From contig JAUCBJ010009136.1 in assembly GCA_032718475.1 (NCBI GenBank), positions 186,001 through 250,000 on the forward strand: a stretch of DNA of 64,000 nt, in the 5' to 3' direction. The first letter of the stretch is position 1. The number at the start of each line of letters is the position of its first letter. A program made the translations under genes and the position numbers. Positions 43,523 through 61,598 of this stretch are shown here, in pieces. The notes under the pieces are model-generated. The model was not told the DNA's origin. It searched no databases and saw only the letters and a list, made by a program, of their open reading frames with translations. The DNA is from Nemertoderma westbladi (taxonomy: Eukaryota > Animalia > Xenacoelomorpha).

Positions 43523-43649
43523 TATAGAATTATATTCCCTAAATGCCGTGGATTTTCAAAATTTTTATTTTATTCGGATTAACTTTGTAAAGATTGCTTT
43601 GAGTTCTCATTCGTATTGGTTCTATCATTTGTACATCTATCGGTCAAGT

Positions 43650-43736
43650 GGTTCAGTAGCTCAGTCGGTAGAGCGTTGGAAACTATATGTGTAGTAGGTA
43701 TCGAGTTCGAATCCTAGTAAGTGCGAATTATTTTTT
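43650..43736 (+). promoter_or_regulatory. tRNA-like Pol III unit in the LTR (A box, B box, T6 terminator); second copy at 59839-59925
   Basis: TAGCTCAGTCGGTAGAGC (A box/D-arm), GAGTTCGAATCC (B box), then TTTTTT. Acceptor and T stems do not pair well. Confidence 0.7.
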
Positions 43737-43793
43737 GTACAGAATTTCAACTCGTTTAAATTAACCGCTACAAATTAATTGCATTTGTCTGTA

Positions 43794-43939
43794 CCAATGA
43801 GATTGTAGTTATTTTATTGTAACCAATGTCGTGCAAGTTATATATTAGCTGGACCAATAGCTATCTTTAAAACCTTGTTAGAACCCATAGAACAATCGAG
43901 AATTTTCTCGATTGATTGCGGCACAAATTTGCTATAAAA
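43794..43939 (+). promoter_or_regulatory. LTR Pol II promoter: three CCAAT boxes and a TATA box
   Basis: CCAAT at 43794, 43823 and 43854 (~30-bp spacing); palindrome CAATCGAGAA/TTCTCGATTG; TATAAAA at 43933; TTAGTT/TCAGTT initiator-like motifs downstream; AATAAA at 44053. Confidence 0.65.
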
Positions 43940-45132
43940 AGGTGCGATTTGTTCATTAGTTATATATATTCTCTCAGTTATTCAGTTATCTGATATTTGT
44001 TTATTCTGTCATTAGTTTTCAGATTACATTGTATTATAATTATATCTTCTGTAATAAAGTCAGAATATTCTCTCAGCTTTTCTATCTGTTTTACTATGGA
44101 TTCACTACGGTGAACAAACTTAGGGACAGGATGGCCGGCTAGAGATCGGGCCGCAGCAATGAACGGGAACATCACGGGAATGTAGACGAGAGACAACCCG
44201 CAATACCATTTAGAGTTATTCGCCCATCGCCTGAAAGGTTAGACAGCGTTCGACAGTGTCCATTGCATTAGAACTTGTAGGCTAGGGGGGTTGCTGTGTT
44301 TTCACCTGAATTGGGATTGTACCGTTCAGGCGGTAGGGCAGTTTACGTACTAGGCGCAAATAAATTGAGGCTATCAGGGATATACTAACATCTACCGTGT
44401 CCCCGCCAACGCCCTAATAGGAAGTTACCCGGACTACCTGGGTGACTAAAATTCTAGATAGGAGCCAGGATAGCTATTAGTACCCGTACGCCTACAGTAG
44501 TAAACTAACACATCTCTTCTTAGTATCAGGGACCTGGTACCTAAAATTGCCGAATTCTGGGCGTAGTATTAACCTTATGCCTGAATTTGAGTCCTGGAAA
44601 TACGCAAGAGGGGAAGGAACCTTATCATTTGTGAGTATTGGACCTACAAGTTACAAAATTAGAATATTCGTAAAATGCACACCGTACCCAGTAATTATAT
44701 ATGTGAAGGAGCAAAACTGTTTTGACCGTTCAGAATTAACACACGCGCGTTAGAAATTATTTACACCTCGAAATATATAAAATTAACTTTGTCCGTACTG
44801 TGCTTTGCCCGCTAGTTAGACATCTCCAAATCTCTGCCTGTACCTAGCTAGCGTCTCTTCGCCCAACCATATAAATCACACCGCGGCAAAGTATACGAGC
44901 CCCTTAGTCCGTCAGTGAGTCAGCCTGACTTTAGGATTCGCTGCGCGGGATTTGTTTTATCGAAGTTTGTCTGCTCGTAGACTGTTTTCTGCCTCACCGG
45001 TTATAAGAGATCGATACTGCAATATATTCGCTTACTTAGAGTTTACTGTTTTGGTGAGAAGGTCGGATTTATGATTTGATTTACAAACTTTACAGTAGGA
45101 TATTGCAGGTATTGTTACCGTCTCTTCCAATA

Positions 45133-45143
45133 GTAGGAATGTG
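45133..45143 (+). other. Primer-binding-site position, non-canonical (GTAGGAATGTG)
   Basis: Immediately follows the 5' LTR, lacks TGG, and is the exact reverse complement of 60564-60574 in the intact LTR. Confidence 0.55.
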
Positions 45144-46169
45144 TTTTACTGAACTACGGTTCGGTAGGACTAAAGTTTTTTGAAAATTTTGTATTTTGAG
45201 GTAAAAATTTGTATTTGATTAGCTAAGTGCTAATTTTTTGAAATAAAATTTGATTTGAACCGCGTGTAAAATATTTTTGGAATTGAATACCGGTGTTTAA
45301 AAAAGGGTTTAAATACCATATTGTACCGGTACAAAATTTTCGTAAAGTAAAACCTAACTCTTTTGTTTTTCAGGATTCAGAACTCATTTCTAGACTGTAA
45401 CGGGAGCAAGACCGTGTTTAGCAAGTTTGGGAGATAGATAACTCAACAACTTTGGTTGGGAAAATCGCGTTTCGTCCGCAACGTTAAAAACGGAAAGGTT
45501 CACGTTCGGTTTGTATCTGGGAATCTGTTTTTCTGGAGAATCATTGGAGTGGGTGAGTTTGAAAAGTTGCATAAATAAGTTAGGCATTACCGTATTAGTT
45601 AAAATTATTGTGGGTTCCACTGTCTCAAGTATTTATGCATTCCGTATGATTTCTTTGTTCATTGCTGAATTAGTCCGTATTATTGTATTTAATTTATCTT
45701 TTGATAACGCATATCGTTATCCGATTTATTTGTTATAAAATTGGCCGCTAGGCTAATTTTATTATATACTTATTCCGTGACATTTATTTGCTGTAAAATT
45801 GGCCGTTTAGGCTAATTTTATCCATCTGCTATAAAATCGGCCGGTAGGCTAATTTTATAAGACTGTAATTAGTACCGTTTTGTACAAATACGGTAAACTC
45901 GATACTTTGACACTCACTTTACTTGACTTACAACTACCGAAATGAGTGACAAACAAGACTATACGAAAAATACACAAACCGACTATGACTCATGTGACGG
46001 AGATAAGTCAGCAGCGGAAGAACAACAGGGGAAGACTCGCGAGCCTACCGAACCTACACCGTGTGCGTCACCAGTACATCCAACGGGAGTACCGGATGCC
46101 GTAGTACGAGGTGACGGCAGGACCGAGGACTTTCTAAGTGTTCCGCAACCTTGATATAGGGAAACGGAC

Positions 46170-49100
46170 ATGGTAAGTTCAGCAGGAAGCCAGGAAAGTG
46201 TGGTTAGAAGCGTCGGAGGTTACATGGCGCATATAACCAGGAGTATTGGAGAAGGTCATCGCATATTAGACGGGTTGACCGCTCCGATGTCTCGATTCGA
46301 GTTCTACACCCTCCAGGTTAGGGTACAGAGTAAAGTATATAAGTCCGTAGATAATCTAGTTGGCCTACAAGATCTAGCTAGACAGAGACAGGACATGGAT
46401 ACTCAACTTAGAATCCTCGAGAAACTAATGATCGCTAGAGAGAAACTGATCCAGTTTAAGTCGACGATTAGACAGATACAACAGGAACAAGCGGACCAGT
46501 TGTTAGGTGAGTCAGTTTCGGACGAATTATTACAGCCCGAGGAAGAACAGGAATTGTACCGATTGGATGGACAATTGAAACATTTGACGGACCACTTACG
46601 TATGTGCGGCGAAGACGTCAGCGATTCGGAAACCGTGCCGGAATATACGAGGGAAACTTCACCCGTACGAATCGAATCGGCACCGGGAATACTGGACCAA
46701 TCGTTAGTGAGTATTCGCAGCGAAATTGGCGAGATAAGTATAGTGACGTCAGAAATTTCCAGACAGCAACAACAGCACGACAGACAACGACGAGAAGCGG
46801 AGGAACAAGCACAACTGTTGACGGCACAAGCAGCGATGCAAGAAGAGAAACTACGCGTTGCGAATGTTGCAAGAATCTCTCATCTGCAAGAACAAGCCGA
46901 GTTGGAAGCAGCCGAGATGGAAAGGTTGGAGCTAGAAATAGCACAGCGAACAGCGACAGCTGAGTTAGCGCAACAAGCGGCAGCAGCTGAGTTAGAACGA
47001 CAAGCAGCAGCAGCGGAGTCGGAGCGACGAGCAGCAGCAGCGGAGTCGGAGCGACGAGCAGCAACAGCGGAACTAGAGCGACGAGCAGCGGAGTTGGAAG
47101 AACACAAGCGAGTTTCGGAAGCAAGAGCTGAAATGAAAAAACGGCAAATAAAGGCTCAATCAGCGATAAGACAAGCGGAGCTCGAGGCGCAACAACAACA
47201 GACGGAACAACGCGAGAAGGAAGTTAAACTTCATTTCGAACTCGGAAAGAAGGCGAGAGAATTAGCCAATGCGAAGGAAGATCTGGATCTACAAGCCCGC
47301 GATCGATCGATGAGATCTCGAGATGGACACGATCTAGACCAGTTAGAGGTAAGGCACCGCCAAATCCAGGAACGAATGAAGGAAGGTTCGGTAGGGGCAC
47401 CTGGACGAGAAAGACAATTAGTTAAGGACTTATGTCAAAGATTCCCTCAGGTAACTCCTATGTTTGCACCTGTTACGACTAAAGAACCTGTTTCGATTGC
47501 TGGTAGCAGTGATATCTCTCCTATCCATGGTGTGACGGAACACAGGTTTGTTATTCCGGACAAGTTTATACCTTCAAGAGCAACGTCGTCGCCTATTCCG
47601 AAAGTCAAGGTAAGTAACCCGCCGATTACAGATCGTAGTAGTTTGTTGACTGGACCTGCACTACTGACGACTAAACAGGTGAGTCCACCGTCGACCCCTA
47701 AACCTGTTACACACTACGCTTACCCAATGACGTTTCGACCAACAAGGCCTTTGGATTCAAAAGCGGTCATTCGCCCACCGATTCAGTTTACATCGCAATC
47801 TACGACTTCGAGGAAGACTTGTGAGCCTACCGAACAACGGAGAACAGTGGAGACGCGACCGTTCAACCAGTGTACATCGCAATCTACGACTTCGAGGAAG
47901 ACTTGTGAGCCTACCGAACAACGGAGACTAGTGGATACGCGACCGTTCAACCAGTGTACATCGCAATCTACGACTTCGAGGAAGACTTGTGAGCCTACCG
48001 AACAACGGAGAATAGTGGACGATGTTCCGAAACGGAACGTTAGAATTCGTACGACGCAACGAACGCGAGCACGTCGACCACCATATCCAGATGATAGTAG
48101 TACTTCGAGCGAATCGGATTACCCGAAACGCGAGGTATTTAGAACAGGGGCGGCCGATGAATATAAACGCGAGCGTTCAGACAACTCCTTTGCAGACAAT
48201 CCTCCACAGAATACACCAACACAGAAGGCGTTACAACCAACGGACGCAATTAGTACACAACAGTTCGCCGACATCATGCGACCAGTTGTTAACAAGTTGG
48301 CTCAGATCGAGGAACGTCTGGAGGAAGGTTACACCGACAGTTCGAGAAATTCCGAATTCGAACACAATAGACACCCGAAGGAACCACAAAGACCGGTACC
48401 TTCAAAACACACATCGTATCAGGGAAAGGCGCCAAGAAGGGAGAATATCAACCAGGTTACCAACCAAGGACGCGAAACTCTGAACGTTGCCGAGGAGATA
48501 GCGAAATTCGCAGCCAGACAAGGATTGCCGGTACAACAACCACCGAAGTTTTCCGGTAGCTCAAAACACTGGCATACTTTCGTAGACTATATCGAATCCC
48601 AGATCGCCGTGTGCGCCTTTACATCACGGGAGAAGTTTAATTACCTGCTTCAAACGTTGTCAGGAGAACCTAAACGTTTGGCGGAGACTTTCGTCGGTGT
48701 ACCGGACGCTTTCGAACTAGCGTACGATCGTTTAACTTCGATATACGGAGGTACAGTTAGTATGGCCAGGTCAGTAATAGAGGAACTCTGTAAGGGAGGG
48801 GCTATCACTAAACCCGTCGACTTACTAAAACTAGCTGACGAGATCAAGAACGCTATCACTACCTTAAGATCAATTGGACAACTTGATTACGGGAATACCC
48901 CTACAGTCCTATTAAAGATCATAGGACGACTCCACCATCGACTTCGTCGGGAGTGGAGGAAGGTCGAATACCAGCGAGAAGAGCGGGGAGGATTCTTAAA
49001 ATTAGAAGATGTGTACCTTTTAATATCCAGGGAGGCGGTAGTAGAAACTCGATCTAACTACACCGACCAGCACATCGTGGCAGAAGGGATCACATTGCCA

Positions 49101-52100
49101 TCCTCCAACCGACAAAAACCCCAGACAACATCCACTAAGACGGCCACTTACACCACACCGACGGAATCACGACAATTCTCGGACGGAGGTAGGGTATCTG
49201 CGCCCATTGGGACAAAACAAACGAGACAGCAACTTGGTACCGACTTCAGTGGCTGCCAATACTGCGAGCATCTAGGTAAGCGGTATATCGGTCACAAGTT
49301 ACGAGGTTGTCGACAATTTCGCGAGTTGAACTCGGAAGAGCGACGGCTGCAAATACGGCCACTGGACTCTTGTTGGCGGTGTACGCGACACGGACACGTC
49401 CGTAAAGATTGCCCAAATACCGACACTTGTCCATCCTGTGGACGCAACCACGACGGTCTGCTCCACACAGACAGCCACACGCCGACGAAACGCTTCGCCA
49501 GGGAACACCCGGAAGCAGCAGCGAGATGTGATGCGGCTTACCGAAAACGAGAATCGAAAACGACTCCAACCTTCGTGACCCATATTGAGGATTGCTTCTC
49601 AGAACAATCCGGATCGTCGGACGAAGAATCAGAAGACGACGAATATTCCAATGGAGACGAACAACCGTCGATCGCGCTTCTGACCACTGACCAACTGAAG
49701 GGATTCAGTGTAATCCCGATTAAGATCACTGGCACAAAGGGGAGTAAGAGGATCTACGCGATTCTAGATTCAGCCTCATCTCATAGCTACGTGGATGAAA
49801 AGATAGCTGACGTAGTGACGGATCTTAAACAAGGTAAGCATGTCAGTTATACAGTAAGTAGTATGCACGGACAGCGTGCAATACCAGTAACACGAGTTAA
49901 GTTGGACTTAGACTCTCTTCTTCCAAAATCGCAGCACAGCGAGAGGGAGAGGTCTTTGTTGCCCTTTAGAGATCTAACCTTTGCGGCCACGAAGGACTTT
50001 AGTAACCTACTAGGTCCAGTGCCGGAACAATCTCTAGAGGACCGTAAGTATTTCAGACACCTTGGTGTACCCGAATGTCCTGTCAATTATAGATCGGTAG
50101 CCATGCTGATCGGGACGGACCAATTCAACCTACATCAGGTGTGGGAAACTAGACCATCGGCAGTTGTAGCGGGAAACGCATACGCCTGCAGAACGCCGAT
50201 AGGGTGGTATACTCGAGCGCCTATGCGCACACTAGACGTAAGTGACGAGGAAGACGATGTACAGAGTACATGTAGTTTATTAACTACAAATTCAATTCAT
50301 TCCTTTTCACACGACGTGAACCATACTACACTACAGTCGACAAAACATAACAGACGTGTAACTAGTATGATAAGTCACAAGGAGCAGCTAATTCACCAGG
50401 TGAGTTTAGAACTTGGGGAGAAGACGAGTCAGCTAGAGATTCCATCGACGACAGATGATAGGCTTGCGAGTCTACCTACCCCAATAACCTCAACAGTGCC
50501 CGTCGAGATCGATGATGATGCGTTGAGAAATCATCAGTTGGAACAAGCTGTACTAGACAAGGAATTAACGGAGAAGACTATCAGGTGGTTGGAACAAGAT
50601 ACAGCTGAACCTGGTAGCTACGAACCTTGTATGTCAGAACAGGAGAAACAATCTCTGAAGATCATGGAAGATACTATCCGCCAGACGAAAGACGGACATT
50701 ATGAGGTAGGGATGTTATGGCGTAGCCAAAGTCCTAAACTTATAAACAACTATCCACTAGCCTTGAGACGTCTACACTCAATACGGCAACGTCTATTAAA
50801 GGACGAGAAAGCCCATCTGCAGTATAACACTCAGATGGAGACGTATTTGACTAAGGGATACGCTATCCGAATGACTAACCCAGAGATAGTGACTAACCAG
50901 ACATACTACCTGCCACATCACTATGTGAGACATCCCGACAAACCAGATAAAGTACGCGTAGTCAATGATTGTGCGGCTCTATTTGAGGGAATGTCCCTCA
51001 ATAGTGAGTTGATGGATGGACCAAACATGAATAATTATCTTATGGGGGTGATTATGCGCTTCCGTCAGCGACAAGTAGCTTTTACTTGTGACGTTGAAGC
51101 GATGTTTCACCAAGTGAGAGCGTTAGAGCGAGACAGAGACAGTTTGCGGTTCCTCTGGTACCCGGAAGGAGACTTAAGTCTACCACCGGCGACTTACCAA
51201 ATGCAAGTTCGCGTTTTCGGTGCCAGAGACAGCCCAAATTGCACGATGTACGCCCTAAAGCAGGCCGCTAGAGATCAGAAACACCTGTATGACCCAGAGA
51301 TAATTAGAATTGTGGAACGTGACTTTTATGTAGATGACGGTTTACAGAGTTGCGACACAGTAGAACGTGCTACAACAGTAGCACATCAATTACGGGACTG
51401 CTTAGCGGGCGGAGGTTTTAACCTCACCAAATTCGCCTCAAACAGTGCCGAATTAGTAGACTCATTCGGGACGACTGAGCGTGGAGGTGGTGACATAGAC
51501 CTAGAGTTCGAACCACTACCGACGACTAAGGTGTTGGGGCTCTTTTGGGACCCAAACACAGACAACTTCCGAGTGAAAGTGAGACTGGACAGTCAAGAGA
51601 ACACACTGACAAAGAGATCATGCTTGTCAAAGTTGAGCCGATTGTTCGATCCGTTAGGATTCATCAGTCCAGTGATACTGCAAGCCCGCATTTATATGCG
51701 CAGTATATGGAAGGATGGACTAACATGGGACGAGCCGATCTCATCAGACCAAGTGGACTTATGGAAGACCTGGGAGGCGGAATTATCTTCGCTAGAGGAT
51801 TATTCCATACCCAGGGTTTACTTTCCATTACAAAGTACATTTCCTGACAACTTGGAACTACACTGTTTTTCTGACGCCAGTGACAACGGTTTTGGTGTGG
51901 CAGCGTACTTGCGCAGACAAGTAGAATCAGACGAGTTCGATGTTTCGCTCATTACTTCTAAGGCTAAGACCATGCCTACTAAGTATATGACGACACCACG
52001 AGCCGAGCTACAAGCCGCAACCCTGTCAACCACCATCGTGAACCTCATACAGACAGAACTACAGTCGAGTTTACAGATATTTTATTGGACTGACGCAACG

Positions 52101-54671
52101 TTGGTTTTATTTTACATAAACAACGACACACTCGAATTCAAGACATTCGTAGCTAACCGTCGCGCAGAAATTCTAGATCGTTCAATAAAAGAGGATTGGC
52201 GACATTGTCCCGGACCACAAAACCCAGCTGATATTGCGTCGCGAGGAATGATGCCTGAGGAATTCTGTAAACCGGAGAACAAAGAATTTTGGCAACACGG
52301 ACCCCAATTCTTGCAGAAATCGACACAAGATTGGCCTCCGTTATACGACAACAAATCTAACACTATCCCAAAGGACGCCGAAATCAAGAAACCAAAAAAG
52401 GGGAAGACAAAGAAAAAGACAACGGCGGCAAAACTCAAGAAGAAACCGAAGGCAAAATGGAAAGATATAACTTCAAAGGTCAAGAGAGGAAGACTTGCGA
52501 GCCTTTCTACACCAGACATATCGCCAGACGGTCAACCAGACACGTTACTAGACGGTCAACCAGACATTCTACCAGACATTAGTAACGCATTGACAAACAG
52601 TAAAGCCGCAGTTTCCCTATTGGAGCGGCCTTCTATTGACAAACAACCAGATACGTTACCAGACGTATCGCCAGACACATTACTAGACAGTCGACTAGAC
52701 ACTAGTAACGTACTGACAAATAGTGAAGCCGCAGTTTCTCTATTGGAGCGGCCTTGTATTGACAAACTACCAATTTTGACACACTTGAGCAACCATAAGC
52801 AAGGTGAAACCTCATGTATTACAGATGTGGGTAGTACCTACGCTAATGTAAATACAGGTGTTACTTTGCGCTCAAGAGACATACCGAACTTGCAACCTAT
52901 GGTGAGACCTGGGATTAATGTCGGCAGGAAAATAAGTTTACCGAAACCTGCTGACCCCATAGAGTTCAAACCACCATTAACGATCGACTTACAAAGTACT
53001 GACGATCAAGGTAAGAAGACGAAGAAGGACAAATTACTTGTAGACCCCGACGGATCAACAGTCAACAAGGGAATACTTACCGGCGGACCCGTGGGCCCTT
53101 CTAGTAATTCAAAACCTTCCAAAATCTCCATTGACTTACCTGATGACGTCACAAATACTCATGTCGACCGTATTGTAAACCTAACAGATTCTTGGACAAA
53201 CGCTTGCCGAAAATTAGCGTGGATTGTACGTTTTGTACAATACGTTAAAGGCAAACGTGACTTTACACGTCGACTTACATTGGCTGAGATTGACAGGTGT
53301 GAGATTAAATTAATTCGCCATTACCAACTGCGATATTTCGCGCGCGAATTCACATCCATAAATCAAGGTCAACCAATCAAGTTGTCACCAATACTGAGTT
53401 GGAGTCCGATTATTTATAATGGCTTAATTTATCATAAATCTCGGCTTCAAAACATTGACTTTAACACAAACTTTAGGTACCCAATAATAATACCGCAACA
53501 CCACGAACTACAACGTGCAATGATACTGGACGCACATCTACATCTGAAACACGCTGGAAGACACCACTGTCTTTCCTACTTACGTACTAGATTTGTATTA
53601 ATTAGACCCAGTAAAGCATTAAGTTCAGTGACACGTACGTGTATTATTTGTAAAAAGGTACATTCTAGAATAGGTACCCAAGAAATGAGTGAACTACCAC
53701 AAGCACGACTTCAAGCATTCAAACCACCTTTTACAGAGACTGGAATTGATTGCTTTGGTCCCATACATACGAAACGTGGACGTATACTAGTAAAACGCTG
53801 GGGACTGATTTTCACATGTATGTCCAGTAGGGCAGTTCATATTGAACGTGTGATGGATCTTTCCACCTACGCGTTTATACTAGCACTGCGGCGATTTATC
53901 GCTAGACGCGGACTAGTAAAATGCTTGTACTCAGACCAAGGGACAAACTTTGTTGGTGCTCGGAATGAGATTGCTAGAGCCTTTAAGAAATTAGATCATG
54001 ATCAAATCTCGAACGAACTACAACCTCACAAGATTGTTTGGAAGTTCAACCCTCCAGATAGTCCTTGGAGAGGCGGAGTCTGGGAGAGATTGATTAGATC
54101 TATAAAGACAGCCATGGCAAAGGTCATTCCAGTAAACCACATATTAACAGACGACCAACTGACAACATTGTTTGTTGAAATCGAGGCAATACTAAATACT
54201 AGACCAATAGTATTAGTACCCGATGACAAACAATCTCAATTTGCTTTAACACCAGCACACCTGCTAATGCAGGCACCGACTACTTTGACGCCGATTTCTA
54301 TTCCAATAGAAAGCGACAGCTACGGTAGAAAAGCGTGGAAAATCACGCAACTACTAGCTAACAAATTCTGGGAAATATGGCAAAACCATTATTTGCCCTC
54401 TATTTCTGCCAGAACAACTTGGTACAATAACACCCGCGCATTAAAGCCGGGAGATCACGTGCTGTTGGCAGAAGTGAATCTAAAAAGACGCTTCTGGATA
54501 ACAGGTGTAATTTTAGCCACACATCCATCTATGGATGGAGTGACAAGAACTGTGACGGTACGGACAATTGACGGTCGTACAGTAGACAGACCGACTCAAC
54601 GTCTCGTACTTCTTGAAGAGACTCGTAACGAGTCTGGAGACTACAAATCTCCACCTAATACTAGTAAATAA
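46170..54671 (+). CDS. BEL/Pao Gag-Pol polyprotein (2833 aa; probably starts at 45942 with an in-frame TGA at 46152)
   Basis: Coiled-coil N-terminus; Gag core PKFSG..W..F; triple Cys/His knuckle (CQYC..H..C, CWRC..GH...C, CPSC..H..LLH); protease AILDSAS; RT YLPHH, RVVNDCAA, DVEAMFHQV, FYVDDG; RNase H FSDAS, PRAEL, WTDAT, NPADIASRG; integrase H-H-CIIC, GIDCFGP, YSDQGTNF, GGVWERLI. Confidence 0.97.
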   Translation: MVSSAGSQESVVRSVGGYMAHITRSIGEGHRILDGLTAPMSRFEFYTLQVRVQSKVYKSVDNLVGLQDLARQRQDMDTQLRILEKLMIAREKLIQFKSTIRQIQQEQADQLLGESVSDELLQPEEEQELYRLDGQLKHLTDHLRMCGEDVSDSETVPEYTRETSPVRIESAPGILDQSLVSIRSEIGEISIVTSEISRQQQQHDRQRREAEEQAQLLTAQAAMQEEKLRVANVARISHLQEQAELEAAEMERLELEIAQRTATAELAQQAAAAELERQAAAAESERRAAAAESERRAATAELERRAAELEEHKRVSEARAEMKKRQIKAQSAIRQAELEAQQQQTEQREKEVKLHFELGKKARELANAKEDLDLQARDRSMRSRDGHDLDQLEVRHRQIQERMKEGSVGAPGRERQLVKDLCQRFPQVTPMFAPVTTKEPVSIAGSSDISPIHGVTEHRFVIPDKFIPSRATSSPIPKVKVSNPPITDRSSLLTGPALLTTKQVSPPSTPKPVTHYAYPMTFRPTRPLDSKAVIRPPIQFTSQSTTSRKTCEPTEQRRTVETRPFNQCTSQSTTSRKTCEPTEQRRLVDTRPFNQCTSQSTTSRKTCEPTEQRRIVDDVPKRNVRIRTTQRTRARRPPYPDDSSTSSESDYPKREVFRTGAADEYKRERSDNSFADNPPQNTPTQKALQPTDAISTQQFADIMRPVVNKLAQIEERLEEGYTDSSRNSEFEHNRHPKEPQRPVPSKHTSYQGKAPRRENINQVTNQGRETLNVAEEIAKFAARQGLPVQQPPKFSGSSKHWHTFVDYIESQIAVCAFTSREKFNYLLQTLSGEPKRLAETFVGVPDAFELAYDRLTSIYGGTVSMARSVIEELCKGGAITKPVDLLKLADEIKNAITTLRSIGQLDYGNTPTVLLKIIGRLHHRLRREWRKVEYQREERGGFLKLEDVYLLISREAVVETRSNYTDQHIVAEGITLPSSNRQKPQTTSTKTATYTTPTESRQFSDGGRVSAPIGTKQTRQQLGTDFSGCQYCEHLGKRYIGHKLRGCRQFRELNSEERRLQIRPLDSCWRCTRHGHVRKDCPNTDTCPSCGRNHDGLLHTDSHTPTKRFAREHPEAAARCDAAYRKRESKTTPTFVTHIEDCFSEQSGSSDEESEDDEYSNGDEQPSIALLTTDQLKGFSVIPIKITGTKGSKRIYAILDSASSHSYVDEKIADVVTDLKQGKHVSYTVSSMHGQRAIPVTRVKLDLDSLLPKSQHSERERSLLPFRDLTFAATKDFSNLLGPVPEQSLEDRKYFRHLGVPECPVNYRSVAMLIGTDQFNLHQVWETRPSAVVAGNAYACRTPIGWYTRAPMRTLDVSDEEDDVQSTCSLLTTNSIHSFSHDVNHTTLQSTKHNRRVTSMISHKEQLIHQVSLELGEKTSQLEIPSTTDDRLASLPTPITSTVPVEIDDDALRNHQLEQAVLDKELTEKTIRWLEQDTAEPGSYEPCMSEQEKQSLKIMEDTIRQTKDGHYEVGMLWRSQSPKLINNYPLALRRLHSIRQRLLKDEKAHLQYNTQMETYLTKGYAIRMTNPEIVTNQTYYLPHHYVRHPDKPDKVRVVNDCAALFEGMSLNSELMDGPNMNNYLMGVIMRFRQRQVAFTCDVEAMFHQVRALERDRDSLRFLWYPEGDLSLPPATYQMQVRVFGARDSPNCTMYALKQAARDQKHLYDPEIIRIVERDFYVDDGLQSCDTVERATTVAHQLRDCLAGGGFNLTKFASNSAELVDSFGTTERGGGDIDLEFEPLPTTKVLGLFWDPNTDNFRVKVRLDSQENTLTKRSCLSKLSRLFDPLGFISPVILQARIYMRSIWKDGLTWDEPISSDQVDLWKTWEAELSSLEDYSIPRVYFPLQSTFPDNLELHCFSDASDNGFGVAAYLRRQVESDEFDVSLITSKAKTMPTKYMTTPRAELQAATLSTTIVNLIQTELQSSLQIFYWTDATLVLFYINNDTLEFKTFVANRRAEILDRSIKEDWRHCPGPQNPADIASRGMMPEEFCKPENKEFWQHGPQFLQKSTQDWPPLYDNKSNTIPKDAEIKKPKKGKTKKKTTAAKLKKKPKAKWKDITSKVKRGRLASLSTPDISPDGQPDTLLDGQPDILPDISNALTNSKAAVSLLERPSIDKQPDTLPDVSPDTLLDSRLDTSNVLTNSEAAVSLLERPCIDKLPILTHLSNHKQGETSCITDVGSTYANVNTGVTLRSRDIPNLQPMVRPGINVGRKISLPKPADPIEFKPPLTIDLQSTDDQGKKTKKDKLLVDPDGSTVNKGILTGGPVGPSSNSKPSKISIDLPDDVTNTHVDRIVNLTDSWTNACRKLAWIVRFVQYVKGKRDFTRRLTLAEIDRCEIKLIRHYQLRYFAREFTSINQGQPIKLSPILSWSPIIYNGLIYHKSRLQNIDFNTNFRYPIIIPQHHELQRAMILDAHLHLKHAGRHHCLSYLRTRFVLIRPSKALSSVTRTCIICKKVHSRIGTQEMSELPQARLQAFKPPFTETGIDCFGPIHTKRGRILVKRWGLIFTCMSSRAVHIERVMDLSTYAFILALRRFIARRGLVKCLYSDQGTNFVGARNEIARAFKKLDHDQISNELQPHKIVWKFNPPDSPWRGGVWERLIRSIKTAMAKVIPVNHILTDDQLTTLFVEIEAILNTRPIVLVPDDKQSQFALTPAHLLMQAPTTLTPISIPIESDSYGRKAWKITQLLANKFWEIWQNHYLPSISARTTWYNNTRALKPGDHVLLAEVNLKRRFWITGVILATHPSMDGVTRTVTVRTIDGRTVDRPTQRLVLLEETRNESGDYKSPPNTSK

Positions 54672-55331
54672 TTAGGAGTTTACAAATAGATTTCCACGTA
54701 CCTGTACACTGTAGTAAGGACAGCGGTAGAATTCCATTGTCTTTATATGTGAACATTGAGGGTAGTACCCTTATGTGTCACATAGGAGCGGGATTTGTAG
54801 GTATAAGAAATGGAATTCTACTTGGAACTCACAATATTGAGACATTTTCGAAATTTTAGACAATCCATTTGGATTTGAAAATTTTTAAAATTTTCTCCAG
54901 TGAATAGATTTCAGGGTACAGTCGGGTGGAACTTAAAATTAGAGAAACAAGAGAGGAAGACTTGCGAGCCTTTCTTAAAAATTTTAATTAAATTTTACAC
55001 GGTCTTGTTTCAATAAGTTACGTCAATAAATAGACTCCCCTATATTTATTACTAATTCTTGACTGCTTATTTTCTGATAATAGTTTGGGATCAAAAAGTG
55101 AGTATTTTAGACTCACAGCCAGTTTAGCCCAAATTCGTTTTTACTTCGGCAAAAATTTTAGATAAGAAGCAGCGTGTCATTAAAGAAACCCTAGATCTTA
55201 GGCTATGGGTAGGAGGTTAGAGCGTTGTCGAAGCCCAAAGGGCAGACGAAACTCTCACGTCTCCTCACAACTAACTACAAACTCTGTTGTATTCCCTCTA
55301 GTAGTAATGATTATGTAACTACACCCTAATT

Positions 55332-56507
55332 ATGGAGAAAGGGATACAAGGAGAGCCGAGATGGGGATATGATATCCAAGAGGAGGCAGCAGCGCCATTC
55401 GAAAGATTTGGAGCCAAGGATTATACTATATTTGGTATAAAAGAATTATCGGAAAGTACAGCGAAACTCGCGAGAACTAAATATGACTCGAACGTATTAA
55501 AGAGAAGGCAAAACGCATTAAACGAAAGAATCGAAAGTTTGCGCCAAACCTTCAACGAACTTTACCCGTACGATGCTTTGTGTGATACGGGAGACATTAG
55601 CGAAGACCCCGATACTGAAATTAGTCGTTTGTATCATACCATGCAATACCTAAAGGCGCACGAACCTATGCCCGCAGTACGCGATGAATTCGATGGAATG
55701 CATCTTTACAGACGAACTCGAGGGGACGATAGAGAAACCAAGGAAGCATTTTCAGTTTATAAACTTTATTATCAATGCGGTTCTTGTATGCGCGAACAAC
55801 GAAATGCGATTCCGATGCGTTTGAATAAGGAAAATCCCGAACCGATATTGGCGAGGTGTTCGAATCATCAACAACTACGCTACCAGGAAGGAGGGTATCC
55901 TTTATCGAATCCATATCATTCATTTGCTATGACCGGACCAAAGGCGGGAGAAACTGTCATTTACCCACCTAAGGTTGTTGAACCCGATGTATTTGAACTT
56001 ACGCTGGACGAGGCGAATCAGTCAACCCGCGAAAAGAAAGAAGCTCTTAGCCTATACAGAGCCTACAAGGCTTTCGAGAAAGGTGAGATGGAAGAATGGG
56101 GTGGAAGACTCGCGAGCCTACCTTGCCATTGGACGTCACACGATCAAACTTCAGCTAAGGAGATGACACCGGAAGTTTTCGAGAGCATAAACTTTGCTCA
56201 AAACGTTATTCAGAGATTACAGATTGCATCCCCGGAGAGGCCAAGAGAAATGCAACCGTATAGTACTTCAACTACGAAACCATTGAGTACGACACTCAAT
56301 TTCCCTATTAGTATACCAGTCCGACAGGATACGACGTACGAAATACCCATCGTGGATCATCCAGAAATCATTTCAAACTTGGAGTTTCTTCCTGCAGTTG
56401 TTTTCAGCGATATGAGTAAGATATATGATTTATGTAGACATATTACTCAAAAGGTCGTGCGTTGTGCACGAGGTTCAAGATTTCAAGATTTTCAAGGAAC
56501 TGGATAG
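55332..56507 (+). CDS. Accessory ORF A of the BEL element (391 aa), unknown function, possible CxxC...CxxH zinc site
   Basis: Open, non-repetitive ORF in the env slot; YQCGSC...ARCSNH; no evident signal peptide or transmembrane segment; overlaps ORF B (+1 frame). Confidence 0.7.
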   Translation: MEKGIQGEPRWGYDIQEEAAAPFERFGAKDYTIFGIKELSESTAKLARTKYDSNVLKRRQNALNERIESLRQTFNELYPYDALCDTGDISEDPDTEISRLYHTMQYLKAHEPMPAVRDEFDGMHLYRRTRGDDRETKEAFSVYKLYYQCGSCMREQRNAIPMRLNKENPEPILARCSNHQQLRYQEGGYPLSNPYHSFAMTGPKAGETVIYPPKVVEPDVFELTLDEANQSTREKKEALSLYRAYKAFEKGEMEEWGGRLASLPCHWTSHDQTSAKEMTPEVFESINFAQNVIQRLQIASPERPREMQPYSTSTTKPLSTTLNFPISIPVRQDTTYEIPIVDHPEIISNLEFLPAVVFSDMSKIYDLCRHITQKVVRCARGSRFQDFQGTG

Positions 56508-59061
56508 AGCTGGTGCCGACATAGCTCCGAGTAATCTGAAAGGATATCTAACCAAGACGATTCGTTTATGGATTGGAACCGGAACCTTCGAGTCGGATAC
56601 AGATATTGCCGCAGATTGGCGAGGTAAGGTTATTCGTTTCGATGAGGATAAGGATATAGAGAAGATTTGGCAACCTTCGGAAGAATTGTTGGATGAATGG
56701 ACTAGGACGTTTAGATCGTTTCAGGAAAACGGTTATATGTTTTACGATAACGAGGGCGGCAGTCATCAGCAGAGTTTGACTTCTAAGACTATACAGATTA
56801 GAGCGGCGGACGGAGTCCTGCACGTTTTCAGTAGACAGAGGAGCGACAAACGAATGCCGATACCTCCAGCGAATACAAAGCGACACCATCTTATCACCGA
56901 TATAGTAAAGAAGATGGACCAAGCTTGTAATATTGACGCTAGAATGCTACCGAAGATGGTAAGAAACATGATTTTAGATAAAACTGTTGTAAAGGTTGGA
57001 TCAGGAGTAAGGGAGGATTTAATTAGCGACTTTGCCGGCATGACGGACAGCGATGACCGACTACCGACACCATACGTCGACACTCGACCTCTTATTCTGT
57101 GGTCTATAGAACAGGGATATTTTCGTGAGTATAATACTCAGAAGACTGGAACTGGATACATTTCCTACCTGTTATTCAATTGGGATTATAAGGAAGGTAA
57201 AAGAAACAAGTATATTGAAACTTATGGAGAAGGTGATACTCCAGATATGAGTGAGTTTGAATCACAGCTTAAATGGAGAGGATGCGTGTATTGGGCTATT
57301 ACGTCACCTCCAAGAGCGGTCTTACAATATTATTTAGCGATAGAGTCGTCAGTGAATGTTTGCCTAATCGCCGACATTGTGTCTCGGACTCTCAAAAGAC
57401 ATCCACTTTGTCTCGGAGAAGATCATACGTTCTACATGGAAGGGAGAATTCGTACCGACGTGTTTAGACGATTCCTTGAACCCTTCTACAACTCCGACGC
57501 TCAGTGTAATGCCTTTACTCGAGCAGGATTTAGTATATTTCGAGACGTGTATCTTTGCTGTGCGGGATCTCTTATCGAAAGACCATCTATGTTTACATTG
57601 TTACCCTATGAAGGAGAACGTATCGTGGAAATTACGGATGAATCACGGCAGACGCGCGCGCCTATCGGTCACCTTGGTGATGAATTCGAAGTAACTACTA
57701 CGATCGCCGACGATCCTTTAGAGGAACTTCTTGAGATAGAAAGGAACCTCCCGAAGAAATCTCAGACGGAGATTCGACAACTTGAAGCAACAGATGCTAT
57801 AGTTTGTATACAACCTTCAGAAACCTACCAACCCATAGACCCAGATGATTATGATTATAGTGTGGGAGGAAGCGCTCGACCGATTGGAGATCTTATATAC
57901 GAACGAGTGTGGTACCCTGCCAATACGATGTGTAGTAAATGTGGCGTCGCTGGACATCATATGGCAAAGTGCAGTGGAAAGCACATTACTACGACTCAGC
58001 TAATCTGTGGATGGTGTGGGGATCAAGGGTCTCATACCTTTTATACTTGCTGGAGATTTATGGCTCAATGTACTTATTGCAATATAAAGGGACATCGAGC
58101 ATCTGAATGCCAACTAAGAGACATACCTTATGAACACGAATCTGTAAAACTCGTGAGGAAGTTATTTGATGAGTGGGAAGATTTAGCCGACGAACATGTA
58201 TCGGCACAAAGAAGACGGTTTCCGATGAGAGCGCATCTCGGATTTTGGGCGGTAAATCCTCAGACGATGATGTCGGAAGGATATATCTCCGCTATGCCCC
58301 AATATGACGAACTTATCGAGGTTGTCGATATTTTGCCCCACGACAGCGGATTCCGAGTGGTGCGCGAGTATCTGTTACAAATTCACCCGGATAACAAAAA
58401 CACGTGGAATTTTCAGAAAGTCATTAATCGGATTACGTATGGTGAATTCGATCGTTTCCGAACTGAAAAGCGGAACAAGGGAGCTTGGTTAACCGTCGCA
58501 TGGGCATACCGAGCCGCGTTTTACCACAAACGTATACGAGCGAGCGTATTCGAGGAAGAAGAGGTCCTAGAGGCGACAAATATACCAGCCACTCCGGTTG
58601 CGCCGTCTGCACGTCACCCTCGGGAGGACGGGCAGGGTAGGATCATACGGGTCCAAAAGGTGGGCCAACAATTAAAGAAAATTATTAATGTAGAAGAACG
58701 CAAGGGAGTTGAGCCGACTATTCGAGTTACTCGGGATACGGTATCACTTCCAAGAGAACCAGTAGGAGGATCGGGACATACACCAGCTGATCAACAGGGG
58801 GCGCAAGCTACTCTTGGGTCTGCGTCGTCCACTTCTCGCGCGTTCCCAGACGTTCTACCAACTGTAGTGACGACTGATCGGTCACGAGGAATCGGTCGAG
58901 GTTTTGGGATGCTAAATAAACGAATTTGCGAGGAAATAGTCGCACCGTCTCTCAACGTCCCAAGTAAACCAGTGACTCGCCCCACAAGTCCCATATCGCG
59001 AGCAAAGTCACCTGTGCGCAGTTTTCGAGGACGCGGCAGGGCTCGATCCACTAAGCGATAA
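56425..59061 (+). CDS. Accessory ORF B (878 aa): WRN/EXD/Mut-7-like DEDDy 3'-5' exonuclease domain, three CCHC zinc knuckles and a basic RG/RS tail
   Basis: ExoI-like MFYDNEG..TIQI; LPKMVRNMILDKTVVKVGSGVRED (compare WRN-family LP..L..LL.D..I.KVG.G...D); YVDT; ExoIII-like W....P....QYYLAIE; knuckles CSKCGVAGHHMAKC, CGWCGDQGSHTFYTC, CTYCNIKGHRASEC. Confidence 0.75.
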   Translation: MIYVDILLKRSCVVHEVQDFKIFKELDRAGADIAPSNLKGYLTKTIRLWIGTGTFESDTDIAADWRGKVIRFDEDKDIEKIWQPSEELLDEWTRTFRSFQENGYMFYDNEGGSHQQSLTSKTIQIRAADGVLHVFSRQRSDKRMPIPPANTKRHHLITDIVKKMDQACNIDARMLPKMVRNMILDKTVVKVGSGVREDLISDFAGMTDSDDRLPTPYVDTRPLILWSIEQGYFREYNTQKTGTGYISYLLFNWDYKEGKRNKYIETYGEGDTPDMSEFESQLKWRGCVYWAITSPPRAVLQYYLAIESSVNVCLIADIVSRTLKRHPLCLGEDHTFYMEGRIRTDVFRRFLEPFYNSDAQCNAFTRAGFSIFRDVYLCCAGSLIERPSMFTLLPYEGERIVEITDESRQTRAPIGHLGDEFEVTTTIADDPLEELLEIERNLPKKSQTEIRQLEATDAIVCIQPSETYQPIDPDDYDYSVGGSARPIGDLIYERVWYPANTMCSKCGVAGHHMAKCSGKHITTTQLICGWCGDQGSHTFYTCWRFMAQCTYCNIKGHRASECQLRDIPYEHESVKLVRKLFDEWEDLADEHVSAQRRRFPMRAHLGFWAVNPQTMMSEGYISAMPQYDELIEVVDILPHDSGFRVVREYLLQIHPDNKNTWNFQKVINRITYGEFDRFRTEKRNKGAWLTVAWAYRAAFYHKRIRASVFEEEEVLEATNIPATPVAPSARHPREDGQGRIIRVQKVGQQLKKIINVEERKGVEPTIRVTRDTVSLPREPVGGSGHTPADQQGAQATLGSASSTSRAFPDVLPTVVTTDRSRGIGRGFGMLNKRICEEIVAPSLNVPSKPVTRPTSPISRAKSPVRSFRGRGRARSTKR

Positions 59062-59711
59062 AAGGGAGGGCAAGGGTGGATGGAAGACTCGTGGGCCTTT
59101 CTTATGATTTGTGATTTATTTGAATTTATATTTATATTTGTGTTTATTCCGAACTTAAGCAATTTGTATTGTTCCGAATTTGTATTTAGAAAGTTTATAT
59201 TTAAAAGGAACTTATATTTGAAAGATTTATGTTTCATATTTGAGATGCAAAGGAGTTTATATTATTCTAAACTTATGCAGTTTATATTTAGTAAAGATTT
59301 ATATTTAGTAAGAATTTATATTTTATATTTGTAATTATTCCGAACTTATGCAATTTATATTATTCCGAACTTATGCAATTTATATTGTTCCGAATATTAT
59401 GTAATTTACATTTTATAGGCAGTATTTACAGTGAAATAGAAATAATTGTTTGAATTTATGTAATATTGAGATGCAATAGATTTATATTGGTGAATTTAAT
59501 TTAGATTTATATTGTACTTACTTAGTAAAGCCTTAAATACGTAAAGTTTGAATTTGTAATTATTTTGTATCGAATCATTACGTAGAAAGGAAGTATTGTT
59601 TGAAATTTAATTGTAAATATGTAAGTACGCCCTAAGTATTCTATAGTTTGATTGATTATTGGTGAAAACCGTATATTTTATGCACGATAATATCCTGTTT
59701 TCATGGAGCGG

Positions 59712-61598
59712 TATAGAATTATATTCCCTAAATGCCGTGGATTTTCAAAATTTTTATTTTATTCGGATTAACTTTGTAAAGATTGCTTTGAGTTCTCATT
59801 CGTATTGGTTCTAACATTTGTACATCTATCGGTCAAGTGGTTCAGTAGCTCAGTCGGTAGAGCGTTGGAAATTATATGTGTAGTAGGTATCGAGTTCGAA
59901 TCCTAGTAAGTGCGAATTATTTTTTGTACAGAATTTCAACTCGTTTAAATTAACCGCTACAAATTAATTGCATTTGTCTGTACCAATGAGATTGTAGTTA
60001 TTTGATTGTAACCAATGTCGTGCAAGTTATATATTAGCTGGACCAATAGCTATCTTTAAAACCTTGTTAGAACCCATAGAACAATCGAGAATTTTCTCGA
60101 TTGATTGCGGCACAAATTTGCTATAAAAAGGTGCGATTTGTTCATTAGTTATATATATTCTCTCAGTTATTCAGTTATCTGATATTTGTTTATTCTGTCA
60201 TTAGTTTTCAGATTACATTGTATTATAATTATATCTTCTGTAATAAAGTCAGAATATTCTCTCAGCTTTTCTATCTGTTTTACTATGGATTCACTACGGT
60301 GAACAAACTTAGGGACAGGATGGCCGGCTAGAGATCGGGCCGCAGCAATGAACGGGAACATCACGGGAATGTAGACGAGAGACAACCCGCAATACCATTT
60401 AGAGTTATTCGCCCATCGCCTGAAAGGTTAGACAGCGTTCGATCCTTGCTACCTAAGTATAAGACCAAAAGATCAAAAGGTAGAAGTAGTGACACGCTGT
60501 AAGCCCAAAATTACATCATAGGGACTGTACTGTCTTGATTCAGGAAAACCCACAGTAGACCTTCACATTCCTACGGGGGAGGGAGAGCGCAGGCAGATAC
60601 TAGTACGCAGATAGGACGTAGGCACACCGGTACAAGGCATACACATTGGTTAGGGTGCAGCAAACTGTACGCTTAACTCTTGCTAAGTACAGGTGCGTGT
60701 GCGACTATTTGCAGTACGACAGTGTCCATTGCATTAGAACTTGTAGGCTAGGGGGGTTGCTGTGTTTTCACCTGAATTGGGATTGTACCGTTCAGGCGGT
60801 AGGGCAGTTTACGTACTAGGCGCAAATAAATTGAGGCTATCAGGGATATACTAACATCTACCGTGTCCCCGCCAACGCCCTAATAGGAAGTTACCCGGAC
60901 TACCTGGGTGACTAAAATTCTAGATAGGAGCCAGGATAGCTATTAGTACCCGTACGCCTACAGTAGTAAACTAACACATCTCTTCTTAGTATCAGGGACC
61001 TGGTACCTAAAATTGCCGAATTCTGGGCGTAGTATTAACCTTATGCCTGAATTTGAGTCCTGGAAATACGCAAGAGGGGAAGGAACCTTATCATTCGTGA
61101 GTATTGGACCTACAAGTTACAAAATTAGAATATTCGTAAAATGCACACCGTACCCAGTAATTATATATGTGAAGGAGCAAAACTGTTTTGACCGTTCAGA
61201 ATTAACACACGCGCGTTAGAAATTATTTACACCTCGAAATATATAAAATTAACTTTGTCCGTACTGTGCTTTGCCCGCTAGTTAGACATCTCCAAATCTC
61301 TGCCTGTACCTAGCTAGCGTCTCTTCGCCCAACCATATAAATCACACCGCGGCAAAGTATACGAGCCCCTTAGTCCGTCAGTGAGTCAGCCTGACTTTAG
61401 GATTCGCTGCGCGGGATTTGTTTTATCGAAGTTTGTCTGCTCGTAGACTGTTTTCTGCCTCACCGGTTATAAGAGATCGATACTGCAATATATTCGCTTA
61501 CTTAGAGTTTACTGTTTTGGTGAGAAGGTCGGATTTATGATTTGATTTACAAACTTTACAGTAGGATATTGCAGGTATTGTTACCGTCTCTTCCAATA
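59712..61598 (+). repeat. 3' LTR (1887 bp, intact form)
   Basis: Direct repeat of the 5' LTR plus 60443-60719; preceded by a short purine-rich GGAGCGG; followed by CTACG. Confidence 0.96.

Follow-up and report, generated by a model that had tools for sequence, protein, structure and literature searches.

What role does a 20-nt near-palindrome play when it recurs along a single retrotransposon, both in its genes and between them? The question is raised by a stretch of Nemertoderma westbladi DNA (GCA_032718475.1, JAUCBJ010009136.1 186,001-250,000; 64,000 nt of the forward strand, hereafter the window). About ten copies of the sequence are found there, roughly every 2 kb, in the genes and spacers of an 18-kb element.

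The element and its repeated motif

The motif lies in a Bel/Pao LTR retrotransposon of 18.1 kb, which has two additional open reading frames, ORF A and ORF B (Table 1). The LTR pair differs by 4 mismatches and one 277-bp indel, and a 5-bp target duplication, CTACG, is present at 43518-43522 and 61599-61603. We infer self-priming, because the primer-binding position exactly complements a segment of the LTR. Gag-Pol is marked by three Gag knuckles (49254-49478), a protease (49764, LDSAS) and the RT motif YVDD (51327), and it matches the Pfam families Peptidase_A17, DUF1759, DUF5641 and Integrase_H2C2. Its Pol is about 40-43% identical to Pao-type Pol proteins. This copy has an in-frame stop at 46152-46154 that is not shared by contigs of other copies in four of four runs. 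The element encodes six CCHC-type knuckles. It shows no CpG loss; CpG o/e is 1.1-1.5 over most of its length. Values of 1.2-1.4 were also found for a Gypsy fragment and a host ORF, and special methylation protection is thus not indicated. No likeness to the motif is seen in the tract preceding the 3' LTR.

Table 1. Features of the element, in positions of the window
Feature	Position	Strand	Remarks
5' LTR	43523..45132	+	1610 bp, TAT...ATA termini; without 277-bp segment of 3' LTR
Primer-binding position	45133..45143	+	exact 11-nt complement of LTR 60564-60574
Segment complementing 3' arm and flank of 46030 and 47812-type copies	45158..45168	+	
Gag-Pol, Bel/Pao type	45942..54671	+	Gag, protease, RT, RNase H region and integrase in single frame
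Motif copy 1	46030..46049	+	Gag N-terminus, frame KTREPT
Second segment complementing 3' arm and flank of 46030 and 47812-type copies	47384..47395	+	
Tandem repeat with motifs 47812, 47896, 47980	47784..48019	+	84-bp in-frame units, frame KTCEPT
Arm-swapped/inverted copy	50457..50476	+	protease-RT linker, frame RLASL
Motif copy	52488..52507	+	RNase H-integrase linker, frame RLASL
Probable degenerate copy	53082..53101	+	RNase H-integrase linker; double changes at pairs 4:17, 8:13
Motif copy	54955..54974	+	non-coding, pol-ORF A spacer; position 9 T/C polymorphic across family
ORF A	55332..56507	+	391 aa; CxxC-23-CxxH segment 55776-55868
Motif copy	56103..56122	+	inside ORF A, frame RLASL
ORF B	56425..59061	+	878 aa; putative exonuclease motifs 56743, 57007, 57328; three CCHC knuckles 57931-58110
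Degenerate copy	57647..57666	+	ORF B exonuclease-knuckle linker; pair 8:13 altered on both sides
Motif copy	59082..59101	+	3' untranslated region, non-coding
3' LTR	59712..61598	+	1887 bp; putative self-primer 60564-60574

Nine copies of the motif had been listed in the initial annotation, and all of their coordinates and sequences are correct. The exact pattern matches eight times in the 64-kb window, every time on the + strand. Allowing up to 3 mismatches raises the number of matches to 12; 100 dinucleotide shuffles averaged 0.03, and a count of 12 was seen in none of them. No copy was found in either LTR or, in agreement with the initial annotation, elsewhere in the window outside the element. 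All nine copies are real, but a single 84-bp tandem repeat of 2.8 copies accounts for those at 47812, 47896 and 47980, which leaves seven independent sites. The copy at 50457 had been described as a stem variant; its coordinate and sequence are right, but it reads equally well as an inverted copy because it has 4 pattern mismatches on the + strand and only 2 on the - strand. Profile scoring added two degenerate copies to the nine, one at 57647 (20.7 bits; 0.013 expected per element) and, probably, one at 53082 (13.3 bits; 0.08 expected). A weak candidate at 50206 (11.4 bits) was dropped, as three of its pairs are broken.

The motif is read in two frames, KT[R/C]EPT at 46030 and at the three tandem units and RLASL at 50457, 52488 and 56103, while the copies at 54955 and 59082 lie in non-coding DNA; seven of the nine copies first listed are in ORFs. 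Both frames and both non-coding copies had been noted before, and together with third-codon bases that are common across frames they support the proposal that the motif is a nucleic-acid signal and not a protein repeat. The copies at 50457 and 52488 both read RLASL[P/S]TP and differ mainly at synonymous sites. As the three RLASL copies differ mostly synonymously, a constraint on the peptide is also possible there.

All motif sites fall outside the matched enzyme domains, and their spacing is even (CV 0.28, P=0.005, 7 sites). Of the 140 positions upstream, 99 are purines, where a local null gives 74 (P=5e-5), and this excess is strand-specific. The purine-rich 5' flank is clear at four of the seven sites and is missing at 47812 and 50457. 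In most site pairs the cores are near-identical and the flanks fully diverged. Some flank runs are nevertheless shared between copies, as is a 28-nt identity (52481-52508 = 54948-54975) that had been reported earlier and was found again here, which points to duplication.

At least four dispersed 18-mers were found in none of 52 control Bel/Pao loci. In one of these loci, L051, two weak profile matches (11.6 and 16.2 bits) were rejected, since one lies within RT, the centres are unpaired and there is no larger repeat family. The structural descriptor alone is unspecific, giving 27 matches in 1.11 million strand-bases of control loci. The exact pattern has no match in viral contigs. It has 30 single matches in prokaryote genomes against about 35 by chance arithmetic, and a REP-like family was rejected because the count is so close to this expectation. 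Peptides of the widened motif, which occur in 4 of 123 proteins, once each and as antisense or rare variants, were also taken as chance.

Predicted pairing within and between copies

Eight dyad pairs were compared on the sense strand of the seven distinct sequences, leaving out pairs 3:18 and 6:15. Watson-Crick pairs make up 44 of the 56 combinations, G·U pairs 11 and A·C one. Pair 6:15 hardly varies: six of the seven distinct sequences have an A·C mismatch there, which becomes G·U on the antisense strand. Four versions of pair 8:13 occur (U-A, U·G, G-C and C-G) and two of pair 4:17 (A-U and G-C); the double changes all come from 57647 and 53082, copies that were added after being seen. The covariation score of 0.292 was reached by 18 of 500 shuffles, and four other covariation measures did not exceed shuffles (61, 272, 98 and 238 of 500). 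The central YGYG comprises precisely those variants of CGCG that remain self-complementary once G·U pairs are allowed. Neither G10 nor G12 varies among the seven distinct sequences, while positions 9 and 11 show C>T. The G·U-type changes are few: each of 945 trees requires at least five at positions 9, 11 and 19, and position 13 adds one. Set against one A·C-type change they give a two-sided P of about 0.13. Since the variants are mostly G·U on the sense strand, including in what had been called the loop, they fit an RNA that is self-complementary and whose copies pair with each other.

The motif had been described as a hairpin. Its dyad is kept through double changes, but the stem is predicted to fold poorly on the sense strand, with energies of -0.4 to -2 kcal/mol, or down to about -4.2 kcal/mol where hairpins are compared with duplexes, and a pairing probability in context that does not exceed 0.06 at eight of the ten sites. 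The term is overstated because the sense-strand fold is so weak. By prediction, the antisense hairpin is stabler than the sense one at 9 of 10 sites, the antisense duplex is stabler than the sense duplex for 4 of 7 distinct sequences, and DNA hairpins reach -1.7 kcal/mol at best. An alternative register (G1-C16 and G2-C15 with upstream purines) was rejected as a general fold; it is strong only at 52488 and partly so at 54955. No match to Rfam covariance models was obtained over 43500-61700 at E up to 1, and a tRNA search gave no match. The NC-UGCG tetraloop of Rous sarcoma virus offers a parallel.

Pairing between two copies gives a different picture. For six of the seven distinct sequences the 20-bp sense duplex is predicted at -15 to -24 kcal/mol and, as in dimerisation palindromes, is stabler than the hairpin; mismatches would split it into helices of ~8 bp. 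The triplicated UGUG copy is predicted to be a poor self-dimer (-8.2), equalled by 41% of the 20-mers of the element, and single-copy 20-mers of the element with stronger predicted self-pairing, to -28, also exist. The 50457 copy is the predicted best partner for most other copies. Two further segments complement the 3' arm and flank of some copies (Table 1). The flank part of both complemented stretches is unconserved, and the same 10-mer finds two partners in 0.9% of random windows.

Accessory reading frames and family copies

ORF A sits 3' of an AG acceptor that is joined to a GT donor in the 5' leader in one contig. Searches assigned it to no protein family, DNA-binding families included, and a FLYWCH lead is weak (score 0.78 against the tool's 0.9 level). 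ORF B looks like a DEDDy (3'-5') exonuclease with three zinc knuckles, judging from its sequence. YDNEG, VREDL and YYLAIES occur in order and align with two relatives; we take these to be the ExoI DxE, ExoII D and ExoIII Y-x3-D/E motifs. Its Atlas cluster is 'Werner syndrome-like exonuclease' at 0.92, with PF01612 on 38% of the members. Searches with ORF B gave no Pfam match and weak PDB matches (7c42 is presumably T. brucei RNase D), and two AlphaFold models, one of them of ORF B, were too poor for use (pLDDT 31.1 and 38.9). A word search found no relatives of ORF B and a full HMMER scan found three, of which P0121 aligns over the knuckles only. DNA encoding such relatives was not found in metagenome or viral contigs. 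No likeness to VANC was found in ORF A or ORF B.

The family is young, with 4 LTR mismatches, and across it C>T and G>A changes are in balance (167 and 208, respectively, in run X1). The sole polymorphism seen within the motif is the T/C at position 9 of 54955. Three substitution sites at 1% or above were seen in 231 nt of reads, an underpowered test of conservation. The family appears to gain motif copies. Other members apparently have a second copy 3' of 59082, and a joint from 59442 to 59072 was found in three of four runs. The same analysis showed a sister subfamily of roughly 80% identity.

Explanations for the dispersed motif and related systems

The explanation that we favour, with about even confidence, is that the copies are putative dispersed dimer-linkage and Gag-binding sites on genomic RNA. 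On the sense genomic RNA, copies would form pairs with one another, and the zinc knuckles of Gag or ORF B would bind them during dimerisation and packaging. By analogy with the Ty1 PAL1-PAL2 hairpin, Gag may chaperone a switch from hairpin to duplex; by analogy with the MMTV dimer-initiation palindrome, Gag may land on the purine tract. A unit repeated every ~2 kb could tie or condense the ~16.5-kb genome. The initial annotation had left a choice between an RNA and a DNA signal, and RNA is favoured here, as a self-complementary element and not as a stable hairpin.

A role in RNA is supported by the two frames and non-coding copies, the spacing, the covarying pairs, the G·U bias, the strand-specific purines, the complementary segments and the knuckles. 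It is also supported by the YGYG core with its invariant G10 and G12 in a family in which C>T and G>A are balanced, by the T/C at 54955 and by the gain of copies. Seven independent and two degenerate sites, evenly spaced and with a common motif, are what dispersed packaging signals would present. On the other side stand the A·C at 6:15, the stabler antisense folds, the small number of G·U events, the post hoc double changes, the weak UGUG self-dimer and the two sites that lack a purine flank. The 50457 copy is more simply explained by inversion or synonymous drift, the even spacing may just mirror the positions of linkers, and a spliced form would still keep three copies. To our knowledge, the dimerisation and packaging signals described so far are few and lie close to the 5' end, which counts against an RNA role; here the copies run from 46030 to 59082 and only the first is close to the 5' leader.

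It is possible, though we think it rather unlikely, that the motif is instead a double-stranded DNA dyad for a dimeric protein, ORF A or a host factor, that keeps the long internal region transcribable by VANC-like anti-silencing or as an insulator or enhancer. The motif is a quasi-palindrome with a CGCG core, the inverted 50457 copy fits the pattern with two mismatches, hairpins are marginal in RNA and DNA alike, and ORF A has its CxxC-23-CxxH segment and the FLYWCH lead. A symmetric dimer, however, should accept G>A at positions 10 and 12 as readily as C>T at 9 and 11, and this is seen on the sense strand in none of the seven distinct sequences, whereas a site for a monomer would not hold pair 8:13 complementary through double changes. 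The LTRs, where the promoter would be located, have no copy, the CpG o/e gives no hint of special methylation protection, and searches placed ORF A in no DNA-binding family. The VANC motifs (PMC5735166) are likewise element-specific, numerous, in one orientation and partly tandem-amplified, as in the 84-bp triple, and the element has accessory ORFs. The comparison made with VANC in the initial annotation is weak, however. The VANC motifs are of 8-9 nt (9 nt for VANC21 targets), belong to a plant DNA transposon and lie mainly in non-coding tandem arrays, and 'palindrom' is absent from the main text of that paper. The present motif is a 20-nt dyad with one tandem triple, mostly in ORFs and with no CpG loss, and no cognate VANC protein was found in the element. 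If the DNA explanation were true, it would provide an animal counterpart of VANC-type sequence-specific control.

We consider it very unlikely that the motif is a largely neutral by-product, in which the palindrome induces template switches and new copies of it end up in linkers that tolerate them, while the RLASL copies are held by peptide constraint (e.g. a protease or kinase site). The common flanks, the youth of the family, the RLASL[P/S]TP linkers and the reads, in which purifying selection was not detected with an underpowered sample, are consistent with this, but near-identical cores within diverged flanks, even spacing and a dyad kept after double changes are not expected of neutral copies, and the control loci hold no such set of dispersed repeats. 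Equally improbable is a role in reverse transcription, in which the purine tract and GGAAG would escape RNase H and prime the plus strand internally at intervals of ~2 kb, or hairpins would pause or terminate minus-strand cDNA: the purine flank, the even spacing and the better antisense fold with G·U at 6:15 would suit it, but the tract before the 3' LTR is unlike the motif, the DNA hairpins are feeble, two of seven sites lack the flank and priming alone leaves the conserved 3' arm unexplained.

Dimer linkage by palindromes has precedents in Ty1 PAL1-PAL2 (the SL1 hairpin) and Ty3 DS/PAL6, dimerisation palindromes of LTR-retrotransposon RNA (PMC6844567, PMC11381356). They are self-complementary RNAs that form a monomer hairpin or an extended duplex between genomes, and Ty3 PAL6 lies within gag. 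The difference is that a single palindrome or a few unrelated ones, of 6-7 nt and close to the 5' end, are present there, whereas here one 20-nt sequence, with a putative function, occurs about ten times over 13 kb. In MMTV SL4, a GC-rich dimer-initiation palindrome adjoins single-stranded purines that bind Gag (PMC8096270). The purine run beside the palindrome is shared, but the MMTV module is single and 5', whereas the present unit is repeated and has its flank at some sites only. MS2 and the HBV pregenome (PMC6281560) have multiple dispersed packaging signals that overlie coding sequence and have a small common recognition motif; theirs is a loop motif on variable stems, whereas here the whole 20 nt is conserved and the stem is weak. 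A literature search found no report of dispersed packaging sites in any LTR retrotransposon.

It is a more speculative and quite unlikely extension of an RNA role that two ~16.5-kb genomes are zipped in register by about ten evenly spaced palindromes, each paired with its counterpart in the other RNA, with the arm-swapped 50457 copy as a hub and the knuckle-exonuclease ORF B reading the tags as self. If this were true, distributed dimer linkage would lift the size limit on LTR retrotransposons. One conserved 20-mer over coding sequence in two frames is a directly testable handle on the pairing, packing or protection of a long genome. Among other unusual LTR elements, the bdelloid Juno and Vesta have a DEDDy-exonuclease ORF3 (PMC5408684) and the Burro elements are giant (PMC6431247); in the text available for these sources a dispersed motif is not mentioned. 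The extra DEDDy-type ORF 3' of pol is a likeness to Juno and Vesta and the oversized genome a likeness to Burro, but ORF B has three CCHC knuckles and another domain in addition, and it belongs to a Bel/Pao element. The Burro paper (PMC6431247) names transcript length, RT processivity and particle capacity as presumed limits on how large LTR retrotransposons can grow. Most Pol matches of the present element are polyproteins of 1,560-2,240 aa, and its ~16.5-kb genome is about twice their implied length.

The motif array and its distribution

All nine coordinates reported in the initial annotation for the 20-nt near-palindromic motif with a central YGYG are correct. The pattern proposed there has eight exact matches in the window, all on the + strand, and when up to 3 mismatches were allowed on both strands, 12 matches were found; 100 shuffles averaged 0.03 and never gave more than 1. 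The copy at 50457 departs from the pattern by 4 mismatches on the + strand and 2 on the - strand. The copies at 47812, 47896 and 47980 lie within a single in-frame 84-bp tandem repeat, thus there are 7 independent motif sites. The initial annotation had also not seen the motif outside the element, and this holds within the window, where a profile scan gave no score above 7 bits elsewhere; no LTR position is among the best-scoring sites listed by the scan. Degenerate copies were added at 57647 (20.7 bits) and 53082 (13.3 bits), for which a third-order Markov null expects 0.013 and 0.08 hits per element. Of 65 null hits scoring at least 9 bits, only 1 retained the YGYG centre together with every one of the six core pairs. 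This pairing test was devised post hoc, with 57647 and 53082 already seen, and so 53082 is graded as a probable degenerate copy.

Positions and content of the element and its motif sites
Feature	Position	Extent	Content
LTR element	43523-61598	18.1 kb	Inserted in 23-bp satellite, 5-bp duplication
LTR termini	43523-43525, 45130-45132, 59712-59714, 61596-61598		TAT...ATA, not TG...CA
Gag-Pol	45942-54671	single frame	Gag (three knuckles), protease, RT, RNase H, integrase
ORF B	56425-59061	878 aa	DEDDy-like exonuclease, three CCHC knuckles, conserved C-terminal domain
Coding motif sites			Gag N-terminus; Gag low-complexity linker; protease-RT linker; RNase H-integrase linker
Further coding motif sites			ORF A C-terminal part; ORF B linker
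Remaining motif sites			pol-ORF A spacer; 3' UTR

The coding copies all avoid matched Pfam domains and catalytic motifs. Gaps among the 7 sites are 1.1-3.0 kb and evener than random (CV 0.28, P=0.005), and the linker locations could be a partial source of this spacing. The 20 nt located 5' of the motif on the sense strand are rich in purines (99/140 vs 74 locally, P=5e-5); the flank is clear at 46030, 54955, 56103 and 59082 and absent at 47812 and 50457. Contigs from read runs that contain other copies of the element family join backward from 59442 to 59072 in 3 of 4 runs and exit again at 59105 in 2 of 4, which points to a second 3'-UTR motif copy in other family members.

The motif does not occur as an array in any of 80 control Bel/Pao loci, the best of 454 confirmed in a scan that covered part of the metagenome contigs. 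The 52 control loci of at least 6.5 kb were scanned over their first 7.5 kb for dispersed 18-mer families; the largest family reached 2 members in 39 of them and 3 in the other 13, and none reached 4; the same count in four 7-kb slices of the element gave 3, 5, 4 and 4. The motif matches no Rfam family, and the largely open-access literature searched describes no LTR retrotransposon with an array of this kind; element-level details could sit in supplements. The array is real and unusual, and the mechanism set out below is a proposal.

Pairing potential and possible roles of the motif

The motif had been described as a hairpin, but a stable one is not supported. The predicted sense-strand energies are marginal: the eight exact copies range from -0.4 to -2.0 kcal/mol, and 50457 reaches -4.2. 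In a 140-nt context the pairing probability does not exceed 0.06 at 8 of 10 sites, and predicted DNA hairpins are no stronger than -1.7. The antisense strand has the better predicted fold at 9 of 10 sites. Dyad symmetry is nevertheless retained: pair 8:13 of opposing dyad positions is seen as U-A, U·G, G-C and C-G, and 4:17 as A-U and G-C. Of 500 shuffles, 18 equalled or beat the covariation score, with the caveat that related sequences may outscore shuffles, and the other four measures were ordinary. When pairing on the sense strand is extended through the centre, leaving out 3:18 and 6:15, the 56 cells comprise 44 Watson-Crick, 11 G·U and 1 A·C. Pair 6:15 is A·C in six of the 7 distinct sequences.

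We rank first, at roughly even chances, the reading that the motif is an element of the sense RNA, because it explains the missing G>A at positions 10 and 12, the covariation and the purine flank. YGYG comprises the variants of CGCG that stay self-complementary as RNA. G10 and G12 are invariant, whereas family-wide C>T and G>A changes are balanced; the sole polymorphism seen in the motif is T/C at position 9. Counted in events, the G·U-type bias is modest: each of 945 trees requires 5 or more changes at positions 9, 11 and 19, to which one at 13 is added, vs one A·C-type change (P about 0.13). In the monomer RNA the motif would form a weak hairpin, which Gag would turn into an intermolecular duplex while the knuckles would bind purines or loop guanines. 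Six of the 7 distinct sequences are predicted to form a two-copy 20-bp duplex at -15 to -24 kcal/mol, and among all 20-mers of the element five of these six rank in the top 1.6%. For the triplicated UGUG copy the predicted self-duplex is poor (-8.2), and 50457 is predicted to pair with the other copies at -20 to -30. At the first two sites, the 3' arm and flank have complementary segments at 45158 and 47384 (-20 to -24). The element also holds single-copy palindromes with stronger predicted self-pairing than the motif.

By analogy, the motif would work like a dimer-linkage palindrome or a dispersed packaging signal. Precedents are the hairpin-to-duplex switch of Ty1 SL1 (PMC6844567), Ty3 PAL6 (PMC11381356), the purine loop adjoining a palindrome in MMTV (PMC8096270), the GGAG and G//AGG loops of HIV-1 (PMC12789967) and dispersed packaging signals (PMC6281560). 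Dimer-linkage palindromes, however, have a 5' location, a feature that the motif lacks.

A DNA dyad is considerably less probable, and is kept for two reasons: an inversion is a good reading of 50457, and the fixed A·C speaks for the antisense strand. A site for a symmetric dimer predicts G>A at positions 10 and 12, of which the sense strand shows none, and a monomer site predicts zero covariation, but some is observed. The suggested likeness to VANC targets does not hold for two testable features of those targets (PMC5735166). A neutral or peptide-level origin is improbable, and is retained since most differences among the RLASL copies are synonymous and the data gave no measure of selection. 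A role in reverse transcription is just as doubtful.

The element and its accessory ORFs

Gag-Pol carries Pao-type Pfam domains and is ~40-43% identical to its best Pol relatives of ordinary length, and judged from its sequence the element is a Bel/Pao member. The in-frame stop of the present copy at 46152-46154 is not shared by other-copy contigs in 4 of 4 runs. Between RNase H and integrase (52400-53170) lie about 250 extra residues that include short tandem repeats and a run rich in lysine and have no match in Pfam. The LTRs are 4 substitutions apart, and a 277-bp segment is absent from the 5' LTR. The 11 nt after the 5' LTR (45133-45143) are the exact complement of LTR positions 60564-60574 at the primer-binding position, an arrangement described for self-priming Tf1 and Tj1 (PMC4600332). 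A limited literature search found no report of Bel/Pao self-priming, and the 5' LTR of the present copy is without the segment holding the putative primer. By eye, the LTR has a tRNA-like A-box/B-box segment (43656-43715 and its counterpart in the 3' LTR), for which ARAGORN and Rfam gave no hit.

ORF A has 391 aa and a sub-threshold FLYWCH lead only; family searches gave no assignment. A spliced form evidently exists, as RNA or as retrocopy, because one X4 contig joins 45551, a GT donor in the 5' leader, to 55301, an AG acceptor before ORF A, at GT..AG with 29 letters on the short side. The arrangement is env-like. Run X4 may be RNA; its depth is very uneven along the element, and contig depth is not conclusive.

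ORF B had 3 hits in 1.84 billion representatives, and the two with the full architecture (P0122, P0123) align with it across the DEDDy-type motifs, three knuckles and C-terminal domain. Residues 30-400 lie near a WRN-like exonuclease cluster in the Atlas (0.92), and PDB hits are weak yet concordant. DEDDy ORFs after pol are already known from rotifer LTR elements (PMC5408684). ORF B may represent an undescribed accessory family. Contigs from X1 and X3 that are ~80-85% identical (55764-57152 and elsewhere) also carry ORF A and ORF B, and show a diverged sister subfamily.

Other features of the window

A frameshifted Gypsy-type RT-RNase H-integrase fragment at 563-2888 has a 25-bp perfect inverted repeat (1896-1946), and the motif is absent from this fragment. 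Two host exons (~14295-14561 and 24353-24486), which presumably resemble a myosin motor domain, have large 22-, 21- and 46-bp satellite arrays and decayed elements around and between them. Inverted-repeat arms (24544-25787 and 33523-33572; 22 nt perfect at 24577/33551) flank a 41-bp satellite array, which suggests that the array sits inside a foldback or TIR element. An intronless GC-rich ORF on the - strand (33779-35560) encodes a 593-aa pyridine nucleotide-disulphide oxidoreductase, which we take to resemble apoptosis-inducing factor.
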